Source: a virus (lineage: Duplodnaviria > Caudoviricetes). From it: a DNA stretch of 64,000 bases. The stretch lies in IMG/VR virus record IMGVR_UViG_3300037602_000037; one strand, given 5' to 3'. The notes below the pieces were generated by a model. That model made no database searches. It had not been told where the DNA came from and saw nothing but the letters and a program-made list of their open reading frames with translations. Below, piece after piece: positions 4,479 through 20,326 of this stretch. The position numbers and the translations under genes were made by a program. Numbering within the stretch: the stretch's first letter is position 1; each line of letters opens with the position of its first letter.

Positions 4479-4513
4479 CTAATTACTTAGTATATCTACA
4501 TTTCAGGTGATTT

Positions 4514-4930
4514 ATGCTACAAATATACTCAGAATTTCAAAAACCTGTTCAAAGTATACTATTTAAAGCTAACGTAAGAGCTTCTCAAATAAAGTTTGTG
4601 CCAAACTGTCATCCTAGAACGTACTTTGATGAGTCAAATACCCCAGGTAGCTATGTTGTGGAATTACCATTCCATATTGACTGTAACTACGCTTTATACG
4701 TATTAGCCCATGAATGCGCCCATGTATTTTATAAACATTTAACTGACAACATAGGTAAACCTATTTATATTAAAGAGTATGAAGCTGAAATGTGGGCAAT
4801 TAAAATATTGTCTGATTTTGGTATCAAGTTATCTGATACTACAGTAAATGAGATAAAAGACAACATTCGATACAGTATTAAAGGACAATCAAACGTCCCT
4901 TTGCATATTTCTGAATGGATTTCTAGTTAG
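4514..4930 (+). CDS. ImmA/IrrE-like zinc metalloprotease
   Basis: LAHECAH (HExxH) followed by EYEAEMWA. Confidence 0.7.
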   Translation: MLQIYSEFQKPVQSILFKANVRASQIKFVPNCHPRTYFDESNTPGSYVVELPFHIDCNYALYVLAHECAHVFYKHLTDNIGKPIYIKEYEAEMWAIKILSDFGIKLSDTTVNEIKDNIRYSIKGQSNVPLHISEWISS

Positions 4931-4943
4931 AATTGGAATAATA

Positions 4944-5912
4944 ATGAAGCTTAGAGGACAATTAGAGCAACTCATAGATACTTTTATGTTGGATGTTGCT
5001 AGTCAAAAGGAACCTAGCACTAGGTTGCCTGAATTTCGTGTATCTTCTTTTCCTTATTGTCCTTTGAGAAGTCTTCTATTTAGTGGCGGCAGAGATAATT
5101 CGTATTCAATGGAATTTTATACTTCTATTGGTACAGCCGTACACGAGTCACTACAAAAATGGGCGCTTAAATCTTCCTTCAAGGATAAAATATTTTGCTG
5201 TTGGAAGGAAGTAAAGACCAAAAAAGTACACGGACCATGCTTTTTCCGTGATTTACCTAAAGAAATACGTAAAAAAGAACTTATATACGAAGAAATTACC
5301 ATTAAGTACAAAGGTTTAAGCGGTCATGTTGACCTAGTGCTTGAACTTTTACCAGATGTATTTGTAATCATAGATTTTAAGACCACAGATTTGCAAGGTA
5401 AGCGTTTACGCCATAGAAGTAAATGGCAAGATCAATACCCCGCCGAACATTCGTCAATTATTCAGATTAGCACTTACAGTACGCTATTACGTAAACTATT
5501 TGGTTTAAACGTGAAAGCTTGGTGCTTAGTATACGTGGATAGAGCCTCCGCTATACAAAATTCACGTAGTTACTATAAGCTTATGCGTCCTTGGACTAAA
5601 AAGAAGTCTAAGAGTATGATGAAGCACATTGAACGTGCTTGTGATAACAATGCTAAGTTAACTTCGCTGAACAAGATAATAGAATCATCTGATGAGTACT
5701 CTCCCAAAGCCACTAAACTGCTAAAATACCTAGTTAAAAACAGACCATGTGTTGATGAAGAAACTTACAATGATTGGATGTACTACAAATTCAAAAAGAG
5801 TTTCAAAACTGGAGCTTCTGCTAGTACTGATAGCTCAGGGCATTGCATACTGCGTAAACACTGCCAGTCATGTAGTAAAGATGCCTATAAAGCCGTTTTA
5901 TCCCGTCTGTAG
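4944..5912 (+). CDS. Cas4-like PD-(D/E)XK exonuclease
   Basis: SSFPYCPLR, GTAVHE, GHVD, IIDFKT, QISTY, C-terminal Cys cluster. Confidence 0.85.
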   Translation: MKLRGQLEQLIDTFMLDVASQKEPSTRLPEFRVSSFPYCPLRSLLFSGGRDNSYSMEFYTSIGTAVHESLQKWALKSSFKDKIFCCWKEVKTKKVHGPCFFRDLPKEIRKKELIYEEITIKYKGLSGHVDLVLELLPDVFVIIDFKTTDLQGKRLRHRSKWQDQYPAEHSSIIQISTYSTLLRKLFGLNVKAWCLVYVDRASAIQNSRSYYKLMRPWTKKKSKSMMKHIERACDNNAKLTSLNKIIESSDEYSPKATKLLKYLVKNRPCVDEETYNDWMYYKFKKSFKTGASASTDSSGHCILRKHCQSCSKDAYKAVLSRL

Positions 5913-11954: not shown

Positions 11955-12454
11955 TGATTAGTGATTCAACGGAAAAAGTTATAGGCCATATAAAAAATGC
12001 AATAGCCGAGAATATTAGTGATCCTCCAAATGAGTCTTATACTATGACAATTGGACCGTATAAACTGTCTGGTAGTGGAGGTACTATAGTAGGAATAAGG
12101 TACGATACTGATGGCACAATACATGCTATTCTTGAAAATGGAACCACCTTTGAATTGGAAGTAGACGATAACGACAATGTAAATGTATCTGTTATTTCAT
12201 CTGAAATACTACCACTGATTCCATTGCAAACTGCTTTAGTACCTGCTGAAGACGAAGACTTTTTACCTACCAAAAATAAAACTATTGAGACGATGGTAGC
12301 CAATTTCCTTAAGTGGGAATTACCTGAAGATTTTTCTCCCGATGGAGGTATAACTTTTTCTAAGTCTGATAGTATGCCAGTAGGTACTAATCTGTTGACA
12401 TATGAGCAAGCCAAGAATATGATTGAATTTATAACTAAGGGTGTACTGAAATGA
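11954..12454 (+). CDS. hypothetical protein
   Basis: C-terminal FLKWELPEDFSPDGGI...PVGTNLL motif seen in phage accessory proteins. Confidence 0.6.
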   Translation: MISDSTEKVIGHIKNAIAENISDPPNESYTMTIGPYKLSGSGGTIVGIRYDTDGTIHAILENGTTFELEVDDNDNVNVSVISSEILPLIPLQTALVPAEDEDFLPTKNKTIETMVANFLKWELPEDFSPDGGITFSKSDSMPVGTNLLTYEQAKNMIEFITKGVLK

Positions 12455-12726
12455 TAATTTTGGGTAACCGCATTCATAAAGATGTTATCGACAGATACGA
12501 TGATATGCTTAAAACTAAAACGAATGAAATTAAACCAACACCAGGATATGAATTAAGTCCTAGCCATCTTAGGTGGATGTTGGTAAATATTAAATATGAG
12601 GCAGATTTGTTTAAAGCCCAGCGTTGGCTTGGGTTCGTACAAGCTGGCGTAGTAATTTTAGGTTTAACAACGGTTGAAAAAGAAAGAGATTTCACCAGAC
12701 CTTACTTTTCCGATAATAGTAAGTAG
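12451..12726 (+). CDS. hypothetical protein
   Basis: KAQRWLGFVQ motif typical of a small phage protein family. Confidence 0.6.
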   Translation: MIILGNRIHKDVIDRYDDMLKTKTNEIKPTPGYELSPSHLRWMLVNIKYEADLFKAQRWLGFVQAGVVILGLTTVEKERDFTRPYFSDNSK

Positions 12727-12833
12727 TTTAGGTCGGTGTAGTAAAACGTTTGTTCTGGTAGCTACTACCAATTAGTTGTTTACTAGTTTGTAACTCCAAT
12801 ATATAATAGTATAAAAGGAGAAAGGTTTACCCG

Positions 12834-13292
12834 ATGATGATAACCGACCGTCGTATAAAAATTGGAATTATGGCTTTGGACCCTAAAGCTTGGCATCCTG
12901 AATATGCTACTAAGGGTTCTGTTGGAGCTGATTTGAGAGCCTGTATAGACAGTCAAATCGAAATTGGTCCCGGACAAACAAAAGTAATATCGACTGGTAT
13001 TGCTATTGACCTGCCCTATAATTACGCGGCGGAAGTGCGTAGCCGTTCGGGTATGGCCGCTAAAAATAGTGTGGTAGTAGCTAATAGCCCTGGTACTATC
13101 GACTCTGACTACAAGGGCGAAATAAAAGTAATTTTGATTAACCATGGGGATAAGGATACCATAATATTCCCGCGTCAGCGTATAGCGCAGCTAGTTATTG
13201 TACCGGCTTACCGAGCGGACTTTGAAAGTATATACGAAATGACAGAATCTACCAGAGGTAAAGGTGGATTAGGTTCAACCGGTAATGAATGA
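12834..13292 (+). CDS. dut: trimeric dUTPase
   Basis: GADL, RSRSG, GTIDSDYKGE, RIAQL, RGKGGLGSTG motifs. Confidence 0.97.
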   Translation: MMITDRRIKIGIMALDPKAWHPEYATKGSVGADLRACIDSQIEIGPGQTKVISTGIAIDLPYNYAAEVRSRSGMAAKNSVVVANSPGTIDSDYKGEIKVILINHGDKDTIIFPRQRIAQLVIVPAYRADFESIYEMTESTRGKGGLGSTGNE

Positions 13293-13326
13293 AAAACGTT
13301 TAGTAAACCAAACGAAGGAAGATAAG

Positions 13327-13533
13327 ATGAAACTGAATGAAGTTGTGGAAGTTCGTGGTGTTACAAAGAAGGGCAAGGACCGAGTAAAGCGTCACGGCAG
13401 CAAATGGAAGGTTATCCGTACTAGCGGTAACGGATTTCTTTTGAGTTCGGTGGAAACACAGTACAATAAGTGGGTTTACACAAACGTTAAAAACGATTTC
13501 GAGGTAGTCCGAAATCTCGAAAACGTGGGCTAA
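13327..13533 (+). CDS. small hypothetical protein
   Basis: AAGGA SD before ATG at 13327 (MKLNEVVEV). Confidence 0.55.
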   Translation: MKLNEVVEVRGVTKKGKDRVKRHGSKWKVIRTSGNGFLLSSVETQYNKWVYTNVKNDFEVVRNLENVG

Positions 13534-13540
13534 TTATCGT

Positions 13541-13898
13541 CTTGAGCTAACGGTAAAGTGCCTACGTTAGGATCGTAGTTCTCCCCGCTCTACGATCCGA
13601 AACTCAAGTGGTAGTAAACTGTCCTGCTACCTTTTGGTGATAGAAATTGTCGTGGACAGTTTGGCAATAACGCCCTCCCGTACCGGCATCTAACAAACGG
13701 GATGATAGACTGACAGGAAGGAAAAGACTTCAATGTGGAGAGGGAAAGTAAAATTTCCCTCTCTGCGACCTTTGTAATTAGGCGAGTGTTGCTGAAGTCA
13801 TTAGTGTAGACAAGGTGCGGCCCATTAGCGGGACAGCGATCTGGTTAGGCCAGCCGGAGCTAGATAAACACCGTCGCAACATTCACCTAATTACAAAG
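13541..13898 (+). ncRNA. array of structured non-coding RNA modules upstream of tRNA-Leu
   Basis: Tandem stems CTTGAG/CTCAAG, AAACTGTCC/GGACAGTTT, TCCCGT/ACGGGA, GAGAGGGAAA/TTTCCCTCTC and a ~22 bp stem at 13770-13898. Confidence 0.55.
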
Positions 13899-13908
13899 TA
13901 TAATTCGT

Positions 13909-13992
13909 GGCCACGTGTCGGAATTGGTAGACGATGGGGACTTAAAATCCCTTGCCTAGTGCGTGCGGGTTCGACTCCCGCCGTGGCCACCA
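13909..13992 (+). tRNA. tRNA-Leu(UAA)
   Basis: GGCCACG/CGTGGCC acceptor stem, anticodon TAA at 13943-13945, long variable arm, GTTCGA, CCA end. Confidence 0.95.
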
Positions 13993-14031
13993 ATTATACT
14001 TTGGTAAGCAAATGTGAAAGAGGAATCACAT

Positions 14032-14265
14032 ATGGGTGCTAGACTTTTAGAAAACGAAGATATTGATAAGTTTATTCCTGAACTCAAAAAGTTAGACGAC
14101 GTAGGATACGTCGAGGAAGGTCCAGTGGATGAGCTTAGAAAAGAGATAGAGCTTCGAGTTGGTTACCCCATTGCTCGTTCTTTGTTCTTTAGATTGATTA
14201 AATATGAGATGGCAGAACGGTACATAGAAAAGGTGTTAAATTCCAAGGAAGATTCAAATGGCTAA
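14032..14265 (+). CDS. hypothetical protein
   Basis: GAGGA SD before ATG at 14032. Confidence 0.55.
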   Translation: MGARLLENEDIDKFIPELKKLDDVGYVEEGPVDELRKEIELRVGYPIARSLFFRLIKYEMAERYIEKVLNSKEDSNG

Positions 14266-14494
14266 AACAACTGGCACTGTCTCAATTGGGGACGAAGTAG
14301 ATTGCGGCGGCGCTGTAGGTAAAGTAAAAGCAATTGAAGGAGCTTACGTAATAGTTAAAGGTGTTTATGACTACGGCGGTTTAGTAGAACCTTACACTTT
14401 TGAATACAAAAAGGAAGAACTAGAAGCTTGTTCTATTAATGAGTGTAACCAACGGGATGCTTCTAATTTGGAACATGGTTACGTGGTAGCTTAA
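14258..14494 (+). CDS. hypothetical protein
   Basis: ORF track, SD present. Confidence 0.55.
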   Translation: MAKTTGTVSIGDEVDCGGAVGKVKAIEGAYVIVKGVYDYGGLVEPYTFEYKKEELEACSINECNQRDASNLEHGYVVA

Positions 14495-14599
14495 ACTTGA
14501 AATTAGGGTGTGTCGTCTTTAATGACATTAAATCGCTGTTGAATAATCGACTGGCTAAGTAGATTTGCGTTCTACCCCTTGTACCTTGAAAGGTAAATT

Positions 14600-14872
14600 A
14601 TGAGAGATGCTGATTTTGACAGTTTTTTAATTGATCCTTATAAAAAAGCTACTTATGAAGATAATAAAAAACAACGCTATTCCATCGTGGAACCGGAATA
14701 TGAAGAAGGTGATCCAACTTGGTCCGTATTATGTCATTATCAGGAAGAAGAAATTGAAGATGGTGAAGTTGTATTGTCCGGAGGCACTAAAACTTTAGGG
14801 TTGTTTCATTCAAAGCAAAGGGCGGTTGACTTTATAGTAAAAGATAGGAAAGCCAGGAAGATACATTTATGA
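14600..14872 (+). CDS. hypothetical protein
   Basis: ORF track. Confidence 0.55.
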   Translation: MRDADFDSFLIDPYKKATYEDNKKQRYSIVEPEYEEGDPTWSVLCHYQEEEIEDGEVVLSGGTKTLGLFHSKQRAVDFIVKDRKARKIHL

Positions 14873-15204
14873 CTACTACTAGTGAAGTAAGAAACGTTTG
14901 CGTTAGGATATACCCCAACGGTGAAGTAAAGTATTCTGTCAGAGACGAGGAAGGTACTAAGAGTTGGCTAGAGTATAACTCTGTATACCGTTTTGGAAAC
15001 ACGCTTTTCATCAATAGAGTGTACCAAGAAAAAACGGGATATGTTAGACCCGGTCAAAAGAACTTTGAATTGTTCCAAGAATTTGTTAATTCCTTCGAAC
15101 CGGAAGATAGTGTAGAAAGGTTCATTCGTGGTGATAATGAAGAGGGTTTTCCTTACTACCATGATGATATTCATGGGCCTTTAATTGAAGTAATCTATGA
15201 ATAA
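14869..15204 (+). CDS. hypothetical protein
   Basis: ORF track, ATGA overlap. Confidence 0.55.
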   Translation: MTTTSEVRNVCVRIYPNGEVKYSVRDEEGTKSWLEYNSVYRFGNTLFINRVYQEKTGYVRPGQKNFELFQEFVNSFEPEDSVERFIRGDNEEGFPYYHDDIHGPLIEVIYE

Positions 15205-15253
15205 CGTATCTGATGAGTTTGTGAAACTCAAACGTAACCAGAGTACTAAGTAG

Positions 15254-15433
15254 GTGAGGCTACTATAAATAATCCTCACAAGTTAGGGCGTCTGCTATAT
15301 GTGATTGGTGTAATCGGTGTTAGCTACCGAGTATAGTAGGTGAAAGCCCTTCCAATTGTTGTTGCTATTCGGTTTGGGGTCGCGACCTAAGCGTATTGCG
15401 GAGTATGAGTTCCGTCAATAACAATTGGAGAAG
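15254..15433 (+). ncRNA. structured non-coding RNA modules
   Basis: Stems GTGAGG/CCTCAC; AGGGC..TCTGCTATAT/GTATAGTAGG..GCCCT; TCCAATTGTTGTTG/CAATAACAATTGGA enclosing two hairpins. Confidence 0.5.
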
Positions 15434-15436
15434 ATT

Positions 15437-15472
15437 GGGTGCTTAGCTCAGCTGGTTAGAGCAACCGCCTTA
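15437..15472 (+). pseudogene. 5' half of interrupted tRNA (Val(UAC)-like)
   Basis: GGGTGCT-TA-GCTC-AGCTGGTTA-GAGC-A-ACCGC-CT-TA, then the tRNA pattern breaks off. Confidence 0.85.
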
Positions 15473-15476
15473 TTTT

Positions 15477-15550
15477 GGGAGTATAGCTTAGTGGTAAAGC
15501 AATCGACTTTTAATCGATTGACCCGAGTTCGATCCTCGGTGCTCCTACCA
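15477..15550 (+). tRNA. tRNA-Lys(UUU), nested
   Basis: GGGAGTA/TGCTCCT acceptor, ATCGA-CTTTTAA-TCGAT anticodon arm, GTTCGATC, CCA. Confidence 0.95.
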
Positions 15551-15574
15551 ATTAATTCGAACTAGAATACTAAT

Positions 15575-15603
15575 TCTTTTATATCGCGGGTTCGATATAA
15601 GGA
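15575..15603 (+). promoter_or_regulatory. hairpin overlapping the SD of the HNH gene
   Basis: TTTTATATCG-CGGGTT-CGATATAAGG pairs into AAGGA upstream of ATG 15612. Confidence 0.55.
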
Positions 15604-15611
15604 TTTATAAT

Positions 15612-16208
15612 ATGAAAAAATTTTTAAGGTGTAATGGTTATATTTTGTTGTATAAACCAAAACATCCTAGAGCTTTTTCAAAAGGTAAAGCAGGTAAGAA
15701 CGGATTAGCAGGATATGTATATGAACATATTTACGTAGCCGAACGAAGTATGCATAGAAGACTTAGACCGGAAGAAGATGTCCATCATATGGACTTAGAT
15801 AGATCAAATAATTCTTGGGATAATTTGTTAGTATTGGAAAATACTCAACATGGTAAATTACACGGATTCCTTAAATCTATTGGGTTAAAAGAAAATAATG
15901 TTGGACATAGTCAGCGTAAATATTCAAAAATACCTCGATGCTGCATATGCAAATTTCCTTTACGTAAAGGACAGGATATTACGTGTTCGATTAAATGTGA
16001 TAGAATCAAAAGAAAAAATAATGCAAAAGTTAAAGTTTCCTGTAAAAAATTACATAAACAGTTATCCAAACATTCTTGGGTTAAAGTGGCTGCTTACTAC
16101 GGTTTGTCAGATAACGGACTTAGAAAACACGCAAAGTCTATTGGATTAACTGTATCCGATTATAAAGGTGGTAAATTTGTAGGATACAAACAACCTGAGT
16201 TCAATTAG
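15612..16208 (+). CDS. HNH homing endonuclease (HNH + Zn finger + HTH)
   Basis: YVYEHIYVAE..DVHHMDLDRSNNSWDNLLVL..HGKLH; CCIC..CSIKC; C-terminal SWVKVAAYYGLSDNGLRK. Confidence 0.9.
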   Translation: MKKFLRCNGYILLYKPKHPRAFSKGKAGKNGLAGYVYEHIYVAERSMHRRLRPEEDVHHMDLDRSNNSWDNLLVLENTQHGKLHGFLKSIGLKENNVGHSQRKYSKIPRCCICKFPLRKGQDITCSIKCDRIKRKNNAKVKVSCKKLHKQLSKHSWVKVAAYYGLSDNGLRKHAKSIGLTVSDYKGGKFVGYKQPEFN

Positions 16209-16242
16209 TAGGTCGTGGGTTCGAGTCCCACAGCACCCACCA
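16208..16242 (+). pseudogene. 3' half of interrupted tRNA (Val-like)
   Basis: GT-AGGTC-GTGGG-TTCGAGT-CCCAC-AGCACCC-ACCA; AGCACCC pairs perfectly with GGGTGCT at 15437. Confidence 0.85.
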
Positions 16243-16260
16243 ATATTTTGGAGAACATCA

Positions 16261-16371
16261 ATGCGTTTAACTATTTACTGTATTTTTATTACTCTTTTCG
16301 TATCATCCTGTGGTATTATTCCTAAGAACTGTTCTCAAGACGAGTACTTAACCAACAGTTTATGCAATTAG
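16261..16371 (+). CDS. small putative lipoprotein (36 aa, not in ORF track)
   Basis: GGAGA SD; MRLTIYCIFITLFVSSC lipobox-like sequence. Confidence 0.55.
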   Translation: MRLTIYCIFITLFVSSCGIIPKNCSQDEYLTNSLCN

Positions 16372-16382
16372 CGAGATTTTCT

Positions 16383-16736
16383 ATGAGTGCTTATACCAAG
16401 CATAATTCAAAATTTTATTATTCTCTTGTAGATGATAAGTACTCAGTAATTGACCCCGTTACTTGGCATGTAGGTTCCATTTATGGTCCTACTATTGAAG
16501 TGCCTGAAGACTTCAATTTCGATGTATCGATACCTAAAATACTGGTTTGGTTATTCGATCCGCACGATAAACGTTATATTAAAGCTGCTTGTTTGCACGA
16601 TTACATGCTAAGTGAACTTAAGTGGAATAGGTTAACAGCCGCTGCTGAATTTCATGAAGCTTTATTGGCAGATAAAGTACCTATTTGGAGGCGGTTAGTT
16701 ATGTTTTTGGCTACTGCTTTGTATAGGTACAAATAA
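16383..16736 (+). CDS. DUF1353-family protein
   Basis: VPEDFNFDVSIP...AACLHDY...VPIWRR. Confidence 0.75.
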   Translation: MSAYTKHNSKFYYSLVDDKYSVIDPVTWHVGSIYGPTIEVPEDFNFDVSIPKILVWLFDPHDKRYIKAACLHDYMLSELKWNRLTAAAEFHEALLADKVPIWRRLVMFLATALYRYK

Positions 16737-16756
16737 TATTATCATAGGATACGATA

Positions 16757-17029
16757 ATGTCAAATAAGCTTATTAAAACTGTTACTGAGGTGAGCGCTCT
16801 ACCTATTGAAAATGCTCCGAAAGACGGTACACTAATTAAGCTACTAGTTGATTATTCAGGTAAAGAATCCCGTTATCCGTTAGATGATTTGAAAGTGGCG
16901 TGGACTATTGGTTTTAACAATCTTGACAATACAGAAATAGACGAGTGGGAAATGGTAGGATGGAATTGGTCACAAGACCATTTTACTAACGGTAAAGGTA
17001 AGGTAATAGGTTGGCTTCCGTTCTTTTAA
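16757..17029 (+). CDS. hypothetical protein (PIENAPKDGT motif, DUF551-like)
   Basis: Motif recognition, AGGA SD. Confidence 0.6.
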   Translation: MSNKLIKTVTEVSALPIENAPKDGTLIKLLVDYSGKESRYPLDDLKVAWTIGFNNLDNTEIDEWEMVGWNWSQDHFTNGKGKVIGWLPFF

Positions 17030-17047
17030 CGTAACATATAGTATGTT

Positions 17048-17071
17048 GGGCTTGTAGCTCAATTGGTTAGA
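17048..17071 (+). pseudogene. 5' fragment of interrupted tRNA (Ile-like)
   Basis: GGGCTTG-TA-GCTC-AATTGGTTA-GA, then the tRNA pattern breaks off. Confidence 0.8.
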
Positions 17072-17080
17072 TATAGTTAC

Positions 17081-17156
17081 GGGGGAGTAGCTCAATGGTT
17101 AGAGCCAGTTGCTCATAACAACTTGGTTGCAGGTTCGAGTCCTGTCTCCCCTACCA
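17081..17156 (+). tRNA. tRNA with CAU anticodon (elongator Met or Ile2), nested
   Basis: GGGGGAG/CTCCCCT acceptor, AGTTG-CTCATAA-CAACT arm, GTTCGAGT, CCA. Confidence 0.93.
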
Positions 17157-17171
17157 ACTGTTAGGTGTATA

Positions 17172-17717
17172 ATGAAAGTATCTTGTACTACAAAAGAAAC
17201 TAGGAAGCGAGATAAATTTTTGTTACCTTATTTAAGGAAACTATTTATTATAGACCAAGGTAAAGGTTTGGTACGTAGTAAATATTCGGGTAAACTAGTA
17301 GGTAAACCTCGTAATAAAAACTCTTATGGAGGTATAGGATTAAAAATAAATGGTAAATGCTATTTTATTAATACCCATAGGGTTATTTGGTTAGTATCAA
17401 AAGGTCTTGTACCCGTAGGTTACGTTATAAACCATAAAAACGGAGTCAAAAGTATATCTAAAATATCTAATTTAGAATGCATTTCAGCCGGAAATAATCA
17501 AAAACACGCTTACAGAAATAAATTGAGAAATATTTCTAATAATCCAGGTTCTAATAACGGCAATGCTCTTTTTACCAATAAACAGGTTAGTAAAATTCGT
17601 AAATTGTTTATTGGTAAAAAGAAAAGTAGAAATAACTTTTACAAAGTAGCTAAATTTTATGGTGTTTCTACCAATACAATACGTTCTATGGTAAACAATC
17701 AAACGTATAAAACATAA
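17172..17717 (+). CDS. HNH homing endonuclease (HNH + C-terminal HTH)
   Basis: HRVIW...INHKNG...SNLECIS..NN.KHA; KVAKFYGVSTNTIRS; true ATG at 17172 with AGGTG SD (the ORF-track start lies inside the tRNA). Confidence 0.88.
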   Translation: MKVSCTTKETRKRDKFLLPYLRKLFIIDQGKGLVRSKYSGKLVGKPRNKNSYGGIGLKINGKCYFINTHRVIWLVSKGLVPVGYVINHKNGVKSISKISNLECISAGNNQKHAYRNKLRNISNNPGSNNGNALFTNKQVSKIRKLFIGKKKSRNNFYKVAKFYGVSTNTIRSMVNNQTYKT

Positions 17718-17753
17718 GATTGGTTGGGGGTTCGAGTCCCTCCAGGCCCACCA
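17718..17753 (+). pseudogene. 3' fragment of interrupted tRNA (Ile-like)
   Basis: GAT-TGGTT-GGGGG-TTCGAGT-CCCTC-CAGGCCC-ACCA; CAGGCCC pairs with GGGCTTG at 17048. Confidence 0.85.
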
Positions 17754-17829
17754 TACTATATGCTATTCAAATTCCGCAATGGTGCGGATAGGCGGTTGCG
17801 GCCGTCGCTTTCGACTATAGGAGATAAGT

Positions 17830-18105
17830 ATGTCGGAATCTGAAGAAGTAAGCATGTCTGTTGAGTACCGCATTAAGGAAGTCAAACGTTATATTGTTAC
17901 TAGATGCTATAATATAACGGGTCCAGGTCAATCATCAGGAGGCGTCGAAGAACGCGGTGAATTTCAAAATGCGGATATAGCCTGGGAAGTAGGTTACGCT
18001 TTGTGTAAAGCCGAGCATGAACGACTCGGATATCCGGTAGATGATGAGCGAATCCAGTACCCTCGTCATCCTAGCAGTAGTATCGCTTCACCCAATGTTA
18101 GTTAA
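17830..18105 (+). CDS. hypothetical protein
   Basis: GGGAG SD, 91 aa. Confidence 0.6.
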   Translation: MSESEEVSMSVEYRIKEVKRYIVTRCYNITGPGQSSGGVEERGEFQNADIAWEVGYALCKAEHERLGYPVDDERIQYPRHPSSSIASPNVS

Positions 18106-18118
18106 GTAACTTAGAACC

Positions 18119-18148
18119 TGGCGGGCTAATAATAAAATTAGCCCGCCA
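18119..18148 (+). terminator. rho-independent terminator-like hairpin
   Basis: TGGCGGGCTAAT/ATTAGCCCGCCA followed by a T-rich tail. Confidence 0.6.
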
Positions 18149-18176
18149 ACTTATTTGAACGAAAATGGAGATAAGC

Positions 18177-18938
18177 ATGACTCAGAAGATTTTTATTGCT
18201 AAAAGCGACGTTAGTATTGATATTAAGGAAGGCCAGTTGTTCTATTATGAAAAAGGCGGTACGGTTGAACTAATTCCCTCTAACTTTGAACTAGTTCCAG
18301 AAGAACTACAACCAATAAACGCTGATTCTTTAGAGGAAAATGATTTTTTCCTTGACATAGAAAATGATTTGCGTATTGTGGGAGGGGTTACCTCTAAGTA
18401 CGTAGTAACCTTGCCGGTTGAAATTGAGTATACAACTGAAACTATTAGTGAAAAACCTCAACTTAAAGGCGGTCCTGATGTAAGTTTAATAGACGATGAT
18501 TACGACGATGACGACATTGAAGAAGATGATAAACCAATATTTGACACTAGTATGGTGCAGGTAATACGTAAAATTAGGGAGGACATCAAGTCTAAAGTAG
18601 TTAAAATGACTTATGAACAAGCTTTAAACTACGTTAAAGAAATAAGTGGTGAGACTTTTAATAAAAAATATGATGACGATGACGAAGGTAACGATGATTT
18701 CCGTAATCGTTACCTTCGTCGTGGCCATAGTAATATCCTTCCTTACCTTAACAAACACGGGCAAAGATGCGTAGTAACTTACCATTTAAAAATTGATGAT
18801 AAACCGGAAGTAATTAATAAAGAAAATTCCGTAATGTTTAAAAATGATGAGTTTTATAATAAGTTCAAACGCACGTCGCCAATAAAAAATAAAAGGAAAA
18901 TAGGTAGGAGTAAACGTGGTGTAGTAATACACAAATAG
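18177..18938 (+). CDS. hypothetical acidic protein
   Basis: GGAG SD before ATG 18177. Confidence 0.65.
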   Translation: MTQKIFIAKSDVSIDIKEGQLFYYEKGGTVELIPSNFELVPEELQPINADSLEENDFFLDIENDLRIVGGVTSKYVVTLPVEIEYTTETISEKPQLKGGPDVSLIDDDYDDDDIEEDDKPIFDTSMVQVIRKIREDIKSKVVKMTYEQALNYVKEISGETFNKKYDDDDEGNDDFRNRYLRRGHSNILPYLNKHGQRCVVTYHLKIDDKPEVINKENSVMFKNDEFYNKFKRTSPIKNKRKIGRSKRGVVIHK

Positions 18939-19073
18939 TACGCTGATCCGGGATGGGGATATTCCGTTGATCGCTACTATATCACAAAATGTTGACCGTG
19001 TTTTGTGATTAGCTTGACTAAATACCAGTTAGTAAACAAGCACGTCCATATTTGAACCTCGCGAATTATGGAC
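18936..19073 (+). ncRNA. tandem hairpin array
   Basis: Four adjacent stems, including ATCACAAAAT/GTTTTGTGAT and GTCCATA/TATGGAC. Confidence 0.4.
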
Positions 19074-19100
19074 AACGGTTTAATTTGAATGGAGATACAT

Positions 19101-19730
19101 ATGACTAAAGTAGTTATTCCCTTGACAGGTGGAATGGACTCTTCCTACATGGTGTACAAAGCCCTTAATATGGGCTTAGACGTTTACCCTCTTATCTTTG
19201 ACGATAGTTATGGTGGTTACTCCATGAGAGATAAGACTATCAAACCAGCTATTAGGGTACTACAACAAGCAGGACTTGCCCACAAAGTTCACATCATACC
19301 CTTCTTTCCCACCAATGTACATAAACTATCTGATGAGCACTACGGTTACACTCCGGGTAGGAATATGCTAATAGCTATGTCTAGTGTTGCTTATGCGGAG
19401 TTTGTTGGTGCTGATGAAGTATGGCTGGGTTTCAACGCTTCACAAGAAGGTTTTTACCCTGATCAAAATCAAAAAATGTTTGATGACATTTCTAATCTGT
19501 ATGAAAGCGTTTACAATTTCAAGGTCACCATTGTTCTTCCTCTTTTAGAAATGACTAGAAAGGAAGTAGTAATTTGGGGTACTCAGCTAGGAGTACCTTT
19601 TGAAGAGACTGTTAGCTGTGTTAATACACCAATATCTGTAAATTGTGGTAAGTGTAACAGGTGTAAAGAACGAAAAGAAGCTTTTAAGTCAGCTGGTATA
19701 CCGGATAAAACCATCTACTATGGGGATTAG
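19101..19730 (+). CDS. queC: QueC-like 7-cyano-7-deazaguanine synthase family protein
   Basis: TGGMDS PP-loop, PGRN, YPD, TVSC...CGKCNRC..R zinc motif. Confidence 0.85.
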   Translation: MTKVVIPLTGGMDSSYMVYKALNMGLDVYPLIFDDSYGGYSMRDKTIKPAIRVLQQAGLAHKVHIIPFFPTNVHKLSDEHYGYTPGRNMLIAMSSVAYAEFVGADEVWLGFNASQEGFYPDQNQKMFDDISNLYESVYNFKVTIVLPLLEMTRKEVVIWGTQLGVPFEETVSCVNTPISVNCGKCNRCKERKEAFKSAGIPDKTIYYGD

Positions 19731-19731
19731 C

Positions 19732-19971
19732 ATGAATGACTATAGAATGATAATTATCCATACAATAAACATTGTAGCAATTTCCGTTATAATTGTATTA
19801 ATGTCTGCATTTGGCCATACTATCCCATATATCTACAATGTTCTATTGTATGATGGTTTAAGTAAAACGTCGGCTATTGGCATTTTAACATCTTTTACGC
19901 TAATTGTATTAGTAGTGTTAGTAGCAGCAATATTCAAAATACAATCACTAACTAAAATGTTGAAGGAATAG
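19732..19971 (+). CDS. membrane protein with 2 TM helices
   Basis: Hydrophobic segments; ATG at 19732. Confidence 0.55.
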   Translation: MNDYRMIIIHTINIVAISVIIVLMSAFGHTIPYIYNVLLYDGLSKTSAIGILTSFTLIVLVVLVAAIFKIQSLTKMLKE

Positions 19972-19976
19972 TTACA

Positions 19977-20326
19977 ATGTTAAAAATAGTAGCCAAATTA
20001 ATACTTTTTTTATCTTCATTATTTTGCTTTTACTAGTTCTATCTTTAACCGGAATGTATAACAGGGTAGAAGCGCACGAGGCTCCTACCGGATGGACTTA
20101 TCCCACGTCTTGTTGCAGCAATAAAGATTGTAGGGAAGTTCCCCACACAGAAATAATCGAAACCCCAAATGGATATCTTATTTCTACTACGAATGAACTA
20201 ATACCTTATGACGATAAACGTATACGGGAAAGCCCGGACGGTTTACACCATAGATGCGCGAGAAGTAACAATTTTACTCCTGACGGTGAAACTCTTTGTA
20301 TATTTGTACCACCGAGCTTATTTTAG
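19977..20326 (+). CDS. secreted Cys-rich protein, frameshifted at a T7 run
   Basis: SD plus ATG at 19977; a -1 shift at 20005-20011 restores the signal peptide in frame with AHEAPTGWTYPTSCCSNKDC. Confidence 0.6.

Follow-up and report, generated by a model that had tools for sequence, protein, structure and literature searches.

Within the 64,000 nucleotides (nt) analyzed here (the window), which belong to the virus record IMGVR_UViG_3300037602_000037 (Duplodnaviria; Caudoviricetes), an insert of 736 bases separates the two pieces of a transfer RNA (tRNA) gene at 15437-16242 and contains an intact tRNA-Lys(UUU) gene and an intact gene for an HNH endonuclease, hereafter HNH1. We propose that this nest, cassette 1, is probably a homing-endonuclease insertion, in which a free-standing endonuclease gene travelled together with the tRNA-Lys upstream of it, so that the phage lost the tRNA-Val that was broken by the landing and gained a tRNA-Lys. 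The record is that of a complete 165.8-kb virus with terminal repeats and is metagenome-derived; its intact tRNAs, genome-wide, are Leu-UAA, Lys-UUU, and Met-CAU, with no further tRNA-Val.

The sequence of cassette 1 reads as a first-pass annotation of this DNA had described it, namely, as a split tRNA with a nested tRNA-Lys and an HNH gene (Table 1). The acceptor strands of the two outer pieces form 7/7 Watson-Crick pairs, the 3' strand (AGCACCC) occupying 16233-16239, and the T arm of the 3' piece, GTGGG/TTCGAGT/CCCAC, is perfect. Zero bases separate the HNH1 stop from the 3' piece: two adjacent in-frame TAG codons occupy 16206-16208 and 16209-16211, the second being formed by T43 and A44-G45 of the outer tRNA. 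The annotation had let the 3' piece share its G with the HNH1 TAG; this is possible, but the second TAG also allows the piece to start at 16209 instead of at G16208, so that the gap in the tRNA may be 7 nt instead of 6. Upstream of HNH1, the leader contains a second hairpin (15582-15601) and a Shine-Dalgarno (SD) sequence, AAGGA, at 15599-15603, from which the gene would presumably be expressed; candidate sigma-70 promoters and terminators specific to the cassette are no more numerous than in shuffled sequence.

Table 1. Position and content of the features of cassettes 1 and 2 in the window, followed by ribozyme-less nests and intron-borne loci of the HNH1 family in other contigs.
Feature	Position	Strand	Details
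Outer tRNA-Val(UAC), 5' piece	15437..15472	+	GGGTGCT acceptor strand, D arm, ACCGC, CTTA; nt 1-35
TTTT spacer, left junction	15473..15476	+	sequence reading
Cargo tRNA-Lys(UUU), intact	15477..15550	+	ARAGORN; Rfam tRNA, 71.8 bits
HNH1 leader, 61 nt	15551..15611	+	hairpin CGAAC 15558-62 / GTTCG 15590-94
HNH1 gene, 198 amino acids	15612..16208	+	Pfam HNH_3, 27.2 bits (cut-off 24.8)
Outer tRNA-Val, 3' piece	16209..16242	+	T43, AGGTC variable loop, T arm, acceptor strand, ACCA
Cassette 2, same architecture	17048..17753	+	800 bases downstream of cassette 1
Cassette 2, outer tRNA(CAU), 5' piece	17048-17071	+	breaks in D stem
Cassette 2, cargo tRNA-Met(CAU)	17081-17156	+	
HNH2, second HNH_3 gene	17172-17717	+	outer 3' piece runs to 17753
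Nest at L046			outer UUU-like; inner tRNA-UUU
Nest at L050			outer Arg-CCU-like; inner Met
Nest at L060			outer tRNA broken in D stem; inner Thr
Nest at L128			outer Lys-like; inner fragment of another tRNA
Intron-borne loci (Rfam)			L005, L009, L013, L047, L051, L055, L057, L064-L066, L068, L071, L072, L076

When the two outer pieces are joined directly, ARAGORN calls no tRNA. When they are joined with CAAGCG, the bases that the first-pass annotation had predicted, the program returns a 77-nt tRNA-Val(tac) with a perfect cloverleaf, the anticodon UAC, and the discriminator base A73; C36 is one of the missing bases and is thus predicted. A scan of viral contigs for tRNA-sized stretches sharing the first 15 and the last 9 bases yielded 20 look-alikes, all 20 of which are tRNA-Val(TAC), in agreement with the proposed identity, and their anticodon arm (for example, GCGCC-CTTACAA-GGCGT-AGGTC) is compatible with both broken ends. 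The break therefore lies in the anticodon loop and comes with a small deletion, as had been suggested: 6 to 7 nt are gone from the anticodon arm (region of nt 36-42), including the 3' strand of the stem. The cargo is not a like-for-like replacement either, a tRNA-Lys being lodged inside a broken tRNA-Val. It is hardly credible that a chimeric metagenome assembly created this arrangement or that unrelated tRNA-like fragments resemble two halves by chance. Such an artefact would fit the metagenomic origin of the record and the failure to find a second copy of the exact cassette 1 locus in viral and metagenome contigs, but it is contradicted by the 7/7 acceptor pairing, the canonical D and T arms, and the uniform Val identity of the look-alikes, by a second cassette of the same build 800 bases downstream, and by the recurrence of the layout in independent assemblies from other samples.

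The pieces of the tRNA-Val do not flank an intron. An Rfam search of 12000-20000 at E<=1 returned neither Intron_gpI nor any other ribozyme. We also built a family intron profile from the 300 bases preceding the 3' exon of 13 intron-bearing relatives of the enzyme. Held-out introns, those of L065 and L013, match this profile over positions 19-299 (E 1e-70 and 1e-59, respectively); the window matches it only at positions 35-115, which code for the C-terminal helix-turn-helix of the enzyme, and the matches of L046, L050, L060, and L079 extend only up to position 138, that is, within the open reading frame (ORF). Cassette 1 thus has no catalytic core (P3-P9) and its pieces do not join into an intact tRNA, so that the intron reading was rejected, as the first-pass annotation had anticipated. 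The split tRNAs of Nanoarchaeum and other archaea consist of complete halves with complementary leaders, which are joined by a splicing endonuclease and a ligase. Cassette 1 resembles them in that two halves with complementary acceptor strands are encoded apart, but part of its anticodon stem, the 3' strand, is absent and it displays no bulge-helix-bulge motif; an archaeal-type split tRNA was rejected on account of the missing strand. The phage genome contains no match to the RNA ligase family PF09414 or to RtcB; a search with PF09511 carries no weight, as that profile matched nothing in any control genome. Because no base lies between the stop codon and the 3' piece and because a stem strand is missing, we see no splicing or ligation route to a tRNA-Val, and the outer tRNA appears to be a dead, permanently broken gene and not an intron host.

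HNH1 is free-standing: it has its own SD sequence and start codon, lies between tRNA sequences, and is accompanied by no ribozyme. The protein carries an HNH motif, a CxxC..CSxxC zinc finger, and a C-terminal helix-turn-helix. Thirty homologues were found in a large protein collection, and a sequence-profile search detected no relative in the PDB. Common to these proteins are the HNH motif, a finger built from four cysteines, and, at the C-terminus, a GxSDNGLRK helix. HNH1 retains all 20 invariant columns of a 19-member family alignment, and the residues of the HNH catalytic motif are intact, H58, H59, N66, N67, N71, H80, and H84 being invariant across the 19 members.

The genes of this family occur in three states. 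In the first, they are borne by group I introns; at least 14 such loci are listed (Table 1), in which Rfam Intron_gpI scores 56-90 bits and a phage tRNA(CAU) is split just after CTCAT, in the anticodon loop, between nt 36 and 37. The 3' end of the ORF in these introns overlaps the ribozyme core. In the second state, the genes are free-standing between intact tRNAs in large phage arrays (L014, L015, L017, L053, L054, L073, and L074). The third state is the ribozyme-less nest as in the window, which is found at at least five more loci (L046, L050, L060, L079, and L128). In the window and at L046, L050, L060, and L128, the 5' piece of the outer tRNA is followed by an inner tRNA, present in whole or in part, then by a leader and the HNH gene, and last by the 3' piece of the outer tRNA, which starts from the variable loop and is devoid of the 3' strand of the anticodon stem. 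At L079 (1434-2095), a 585-nt element splits a complete tRNA-Lys(UUU) precisely at nt 36/37 (CTTTT/AA). The HNH ORF of this element is enclosed by tRNA parts of the element's own, namely, an acceptor stem, a D arm, a T arm, and CCA; there is no ribozyme, and the host tRNA has suffered no deletion.

In the protein tree, intron-borne members are interleaved with free-standing ones; the intron label needs five changes, at least two of which well-supported branches impose. Of the 32 distinct family loci, 11 have a leader hairpin, YGAAC..GTTCR, before the ATG, compared to 67 of 5000 random windows (1.3%); where the gene is borne by an intron, this hairpin begins at the 5' splice site itself. The HNH1 family is evolutionary kin of the endonucleases of tRNA group I introns. 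Cassette 1 could be a degenerate group I intron of tRNA-Val, in which a deletion took away the ribozyme core together with the 3' splice site and nt 36-42 of the tRNA, and the tRNA-Lys was later acquired between the 5' exon and the leader. The intron-borne relatives at nt 36/37 of tRNA(CAU), the shared leader hairpin, and the interleaving in the tree all speak for such an origin. We nevertheless consider it unlikely: it needs two extra events, the deletion of the core and the insertion of the tRNA-Lys; the members of the nearest clade (L002, L003, L044, and L046) are all without a ribozyme and each follows a whole tRNA; and the TAG-GTC junction seen at L060 and L128 would require independent deletions.

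Two further arrangements deserve mention. At L068 (1281-2287) and at L071, a whole intron-bearing tRNA(CAU) gene is nested between the pieces of another tRNA, and the outer tRNA of L071 nearly duplicates the inner one. Odd tRNA-like genes lie 5' of the HNH gene in the unrelated tRNA arrays of L014, L015, and L017 (L014:393-469 and 1061-1137, with similar ones just upstream of HNH in L015 and L017); they combine a CTCATAA anticodon loop and a 20-nt variable region with no clear D arm.

We propose that the tRNA-Lys and the HNH gene form a mobile module, and the closest relatives of HNH1 argue for this. The protein tree groups the window enzyme with that of L003 (100/99 support) and then with those of L002 and L044 (99/99). 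The enzyme of L046, whose gene is frameshifted, was placed by BLASTP instead of the tree, its N-terminal part being 55-57% identical to the window, L003, L002, and L044 enzymes. The frameshift falls at an A run (L046:1905-1925); this copy is either in decay or misassembled. The HNH gene directly follows a homologous tRNA-Lys(UUU) in the window, L002, and L044, the cargo tRNA-Lys being 92% and 85% identical to those of L002 and L044, respectively, with compensatory differences in the stems; in L046, it follows a long-armed tRNA(UUU), which is itself preceded by a T run resembling the TTTT spacer of the window. Neighboring genes show no synteny between the window and L002, L003, or G001 (the phage genome that carries L046) beyond the HNH gene and the tRNA-Lys. 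Since the surrounding genes are not detectably related, tRNA-Lys plus HNH appears to be a module common to divergent phages. The outer tRNA varies within the clade, being Val in the window, UUU-like at L046, and Lys-like at L128, and L003 has only the 3' piece of another tRNA while L002 and L044 have no outer pieces; as the outer tRNA differs from case to case, the module would have landed in several different tRNA genes.

Where the outer tRNA of the clade can be read, it is Lys-like, so the Val of the window looks ectopic: the usual target of the enzyme clade is probably tRNA-Lys, and Val an off-target landing. Such a landing was probably eased by the near identity of the variable-loop and T-arm sequences, the Val 3' piece of the window and the Lys 3' piece of L128 being nearly identical from T43 through the T arm. 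Given that the cargo, Lys, differs from the lost tRNA, Val, we argue that the cargo would be a co-transferred flank and not always a compensating spare. In L002, the tRNA-Lys and HNH genes are bordered on both sides by long non-coding stretches with motifs that resemble hammerhead ribozymes (4513-4571 and 5557-5598), the second of which carries a CUGACGAG..CGAAAC core; scoring 29 and 29.5 bits, these motifs stay under the curated Rfam thresholds.

The junctions of the nests suggest how they may have formed. Three lineages have the same in-frame right junction (TAG-TAG-GTC-GTG-GGT in the window, GAA-TAG-GTC-GGC-AGT at L060, and AGA-TAG-GTC-GTG-CGT at L128), the stop codon being made up in each of T43 and the initial AG of the AGGTC variable loop; in L017, the junction is offset by one base (TAA-GGTC). 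The left junction varies, falling after nt 35 in the window, after nt 38 at L128, and in the D stem at L060 and in cassette 2, and left junctions carry captured sequence. A combination of one precise and one ragged junction is expected from a site-specific break of which the T-arm side is repaired through homology and the opposite side is resected and then end-joined, so that the comparative data favor cut-and-repair as the probable route. Our current working model is that the enzyme would recognize tRNA-gene DNA, most likely the segment comprising the variable loop and the T arm (T-AGGTC-G..GTTCGAGTC), and would cut at the 3' side of the anticodon arm. Recognition of the T-arm segment fits the near identity of the window Val and L128 Lys pieces in this very region, as for the motif of SegB (see below). 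The right end would then be repaired via homology, yielding the precise junction at which the stop of the ORF is T43-A44-G45, and the left end would be resected and joined without homology upstream of the donor tRNA, with deletion of nt 36-42 and capture of the whole tRNA-Lys. If a coinfecting phage carries an intact tRNA-Val allele, the retained Val pieces could subsequently provide the homology arms for homing into it.

The good preservation of the outer pieces could also point to a role at the RNA level, in which the T arm, acceptor strand, and CCA would act as a tRNA-like end for the processing or stability of the HNH mRNA, or the insert would be trimmed and the halves ligated. Besides the undecayed pieces, with their full acceptor pairing and perfect T arm, such a role would account for the 3' piece found behind the stop codon at loci devoid of a 5' piece (L003 and L017), for the compensatory pair by which the acceptor stems of L038 and L041, two loci with HNH2 relatives, differ, and for the tRNA-shaped element of L079 and its exact position at nt 36/37 of a tRNA-Lys that is otherwise complete; moreover, expression of segB in phage T4 is thought to be tuned by the processing of an adjoining tRNA (PMC2330249). 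Yet with 6-7 nt of the anticodon stem gone, no ligation can yield a working tRNA-Val, and neither ligase family is matched in the genome; L002 and L044 keep the tRNA-Lys and the HNH gene without any outer piece, L041 has partly lost its 5' piece, and paired changes are equally explained by homing into alleles that had already diverged. An RNA-level function is, in our judgment, distinctly unlikely to explain the cassette.

Several observations weigh against a homing insertion and should be kept in mind. The HNH_3 score of HNH1 is just above the Pfam cut-off, and the leader hairpin that HNH1 shares with intron-borne forms would also fit descent from an intron. Both Val pieces are free of any decay, which requires either a recent event or some selection, and the codon GTA is common in this phage (25 per 1000), so the loss of tRNA-Val(UAC) may be costly. 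Lastly, neither an intact tRNA-Val allele nor a close relative was found by megablast against phages or by searching viral and metagenome contigs for exact patterns of the 5' half, and searches for the locus with the DUF1353 neighbor and with HNH1 likewise returned no close relative or intact allele. The phage is tailed, with a contractile tail, and its capsid protein is 41% identical to that of Rhizobium phage RHEph12; the closest relative found, G001, is a 174-kb uncultured phage whose capsid protein is 48% identical.

Cassette 2 repeats the architecture of cassette 1 around a second enzyme, HNH2 (Table 1). Two viral tRNAs share the ends of its outer tRNA, and both are Met(cat). Cassette 1 was rejected as a recent duplicate of cassette 2, since HNH1 and HNH2 barely align. 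Relatives of HNH2 also split tRNA genes without a detectable ribozyme (L038, L041, and L043), the outer tRNA of L038 being Val(UAC)-like. L041 has the same insertion as L038 and has lost part of the 5' piece, a decay that supports the view of the outer pieces as relics. The stop codon of HNH2 lies within the remnant CATAA of the outer anticodon loop, as is also the case at L043. A long-range CCGAAG/CTTCGG helix that would close the insert of L038 was dropped from consideration, as it is not kept in L041.

The borders of the two cassettes differ in their repeats. An 11-nt direct repeat with one mismatch (15425-15435, TTGGAGAAGAT; 16248-16258, TTGGAGAACAT) flanks the whole split tRNA-Val of cassette 1 and is reached in 1 of 300 shuffles. 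The ORF that starts at 16262 has the downstream copy as its ribosome-binding site, and the entire tRNA unit may have been inserted upstream of this ORF with duplication of its ribosome-binding site. No direct repeat resembling a target-site duplication was found at nine other nests; this is hence no general feature. At cassette 2, an exact 11-nt inverted repeat (17035-17045, CATATAGTATG; 17752-17762, CATACTATATG) lengthens the outer acceptor stem across about 700 nt. Downstream of the split tRNA of L038 (2970-3300), and also in L041 and L042, we observed a conserved non-coding stretch of more than 300 nt, possibly a structured RNA; L002 and the window (13534-13898) likewise have long non-coding regions beside their tRNAs.

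Introns restore the gene that hosts them by RNA splicing and inteins do so by protein splicing. Cassettes that unite an endonuclease and a whole tRNA might represent a third, hitherto undescribed way of living inside an important gene, by bringing along a spare copy and overwriting resident tRNAs, with a turnover of phage tRNA sets as the outcome. In addition, the nuclease mRNA would possess a functional tRNA-like end in the retained piece with the T arm, acceptor strand, and CCA, an element of the L079 type would be cut out by ordinary tRNA-processing enzymes, and cassette 1 would be the informative exception, a Lys-type cassette caught after a jump into a Val gene. We put this forward as a speculation that we consider doubtful.

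Among known systems, the closest parallel is SegB, a free-standing GIY-YIG homing endonuclease encoded in the tRNA gene cluster of phage T4 (PMC2330249; PMC13096335). SegB recognizes a T-arm motif, GGTTCRANTCC, that is present in many tRNA genes, and it drags neighboring tRNA genes along (PMC2330249). Like HNH1, it is encoded by a free-standing gene among phage tRNA genes, the end of its ORF abuts a tRNA, and it is inherited with neighboring tRNA genes, which we liken to the pairing of HNH1 with tRNA-Lys. The two enzymes nevertheless belong to different classes, GIY-YIG and HNH, and cleavage is demonstrated for SegB whereas for HNH1 we infer it from the features described above; in addition, SegB lies between intact tRNA genes, with no report of a tRNA gene split around SegB and a cargo tRNA. 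The F-Tfl enzymes of phage T5 are likewise encoded in a phage tRNA cluster, and the account consulted mentions no nesting of their genes inside a tRNA gene.

Group I introns with endonucleases in the anticodon loop of tRNAs occupy the same insertion region as cassette 1. The phage tRNA(CAU) introns (L005, L009, L047, and others) have both an enzyme of the HNH1 family and the leader hairpin, and the cyanobacterial tRNA-fMet intron endonuclease (Bonocora and Shub 2001, cited in PMC3984707) shares neither of these. Compared with such introns, cassette 1 has no catalytic core, its exon lacks nt 36-42, and it contains a whole extra tRNA gene. A 2020 preprint deals with bacterial tRNA introns. We found no description of cassettes of a tRNA plus a nuclease nested in broken tRNA genes in full-text literature searches, which do not cover subscription journals. 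We want to emphasize that our comparison set contains many group I introns in phage tRNA genes, whereas a 2014 review stated that all phage introns then known lay in protein-coding genes (PMC3984707).

The tRNA repertoires of phages matter both for codon use and for escape from host defenses that cut tRNAs. A phage tRNA-Lys neutralizes PARIS (PMC11464382), and SegB amplifies tRNA loci against Septu (PMC13096335). The occurrence of one enzyme family in three states, intron-borne, free-standing, and nested, provides a natural system for the movement of endonucleases into and out of introns. Together, our results suggest that a self-splicing intron is not required for homing endonucleases to invade tRNA genes of phages, since they can bring along a neighboring tRNA and destroy the resident one. 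Such invasions would be one concrete way in which phage tRNA repertoires turn over fast.

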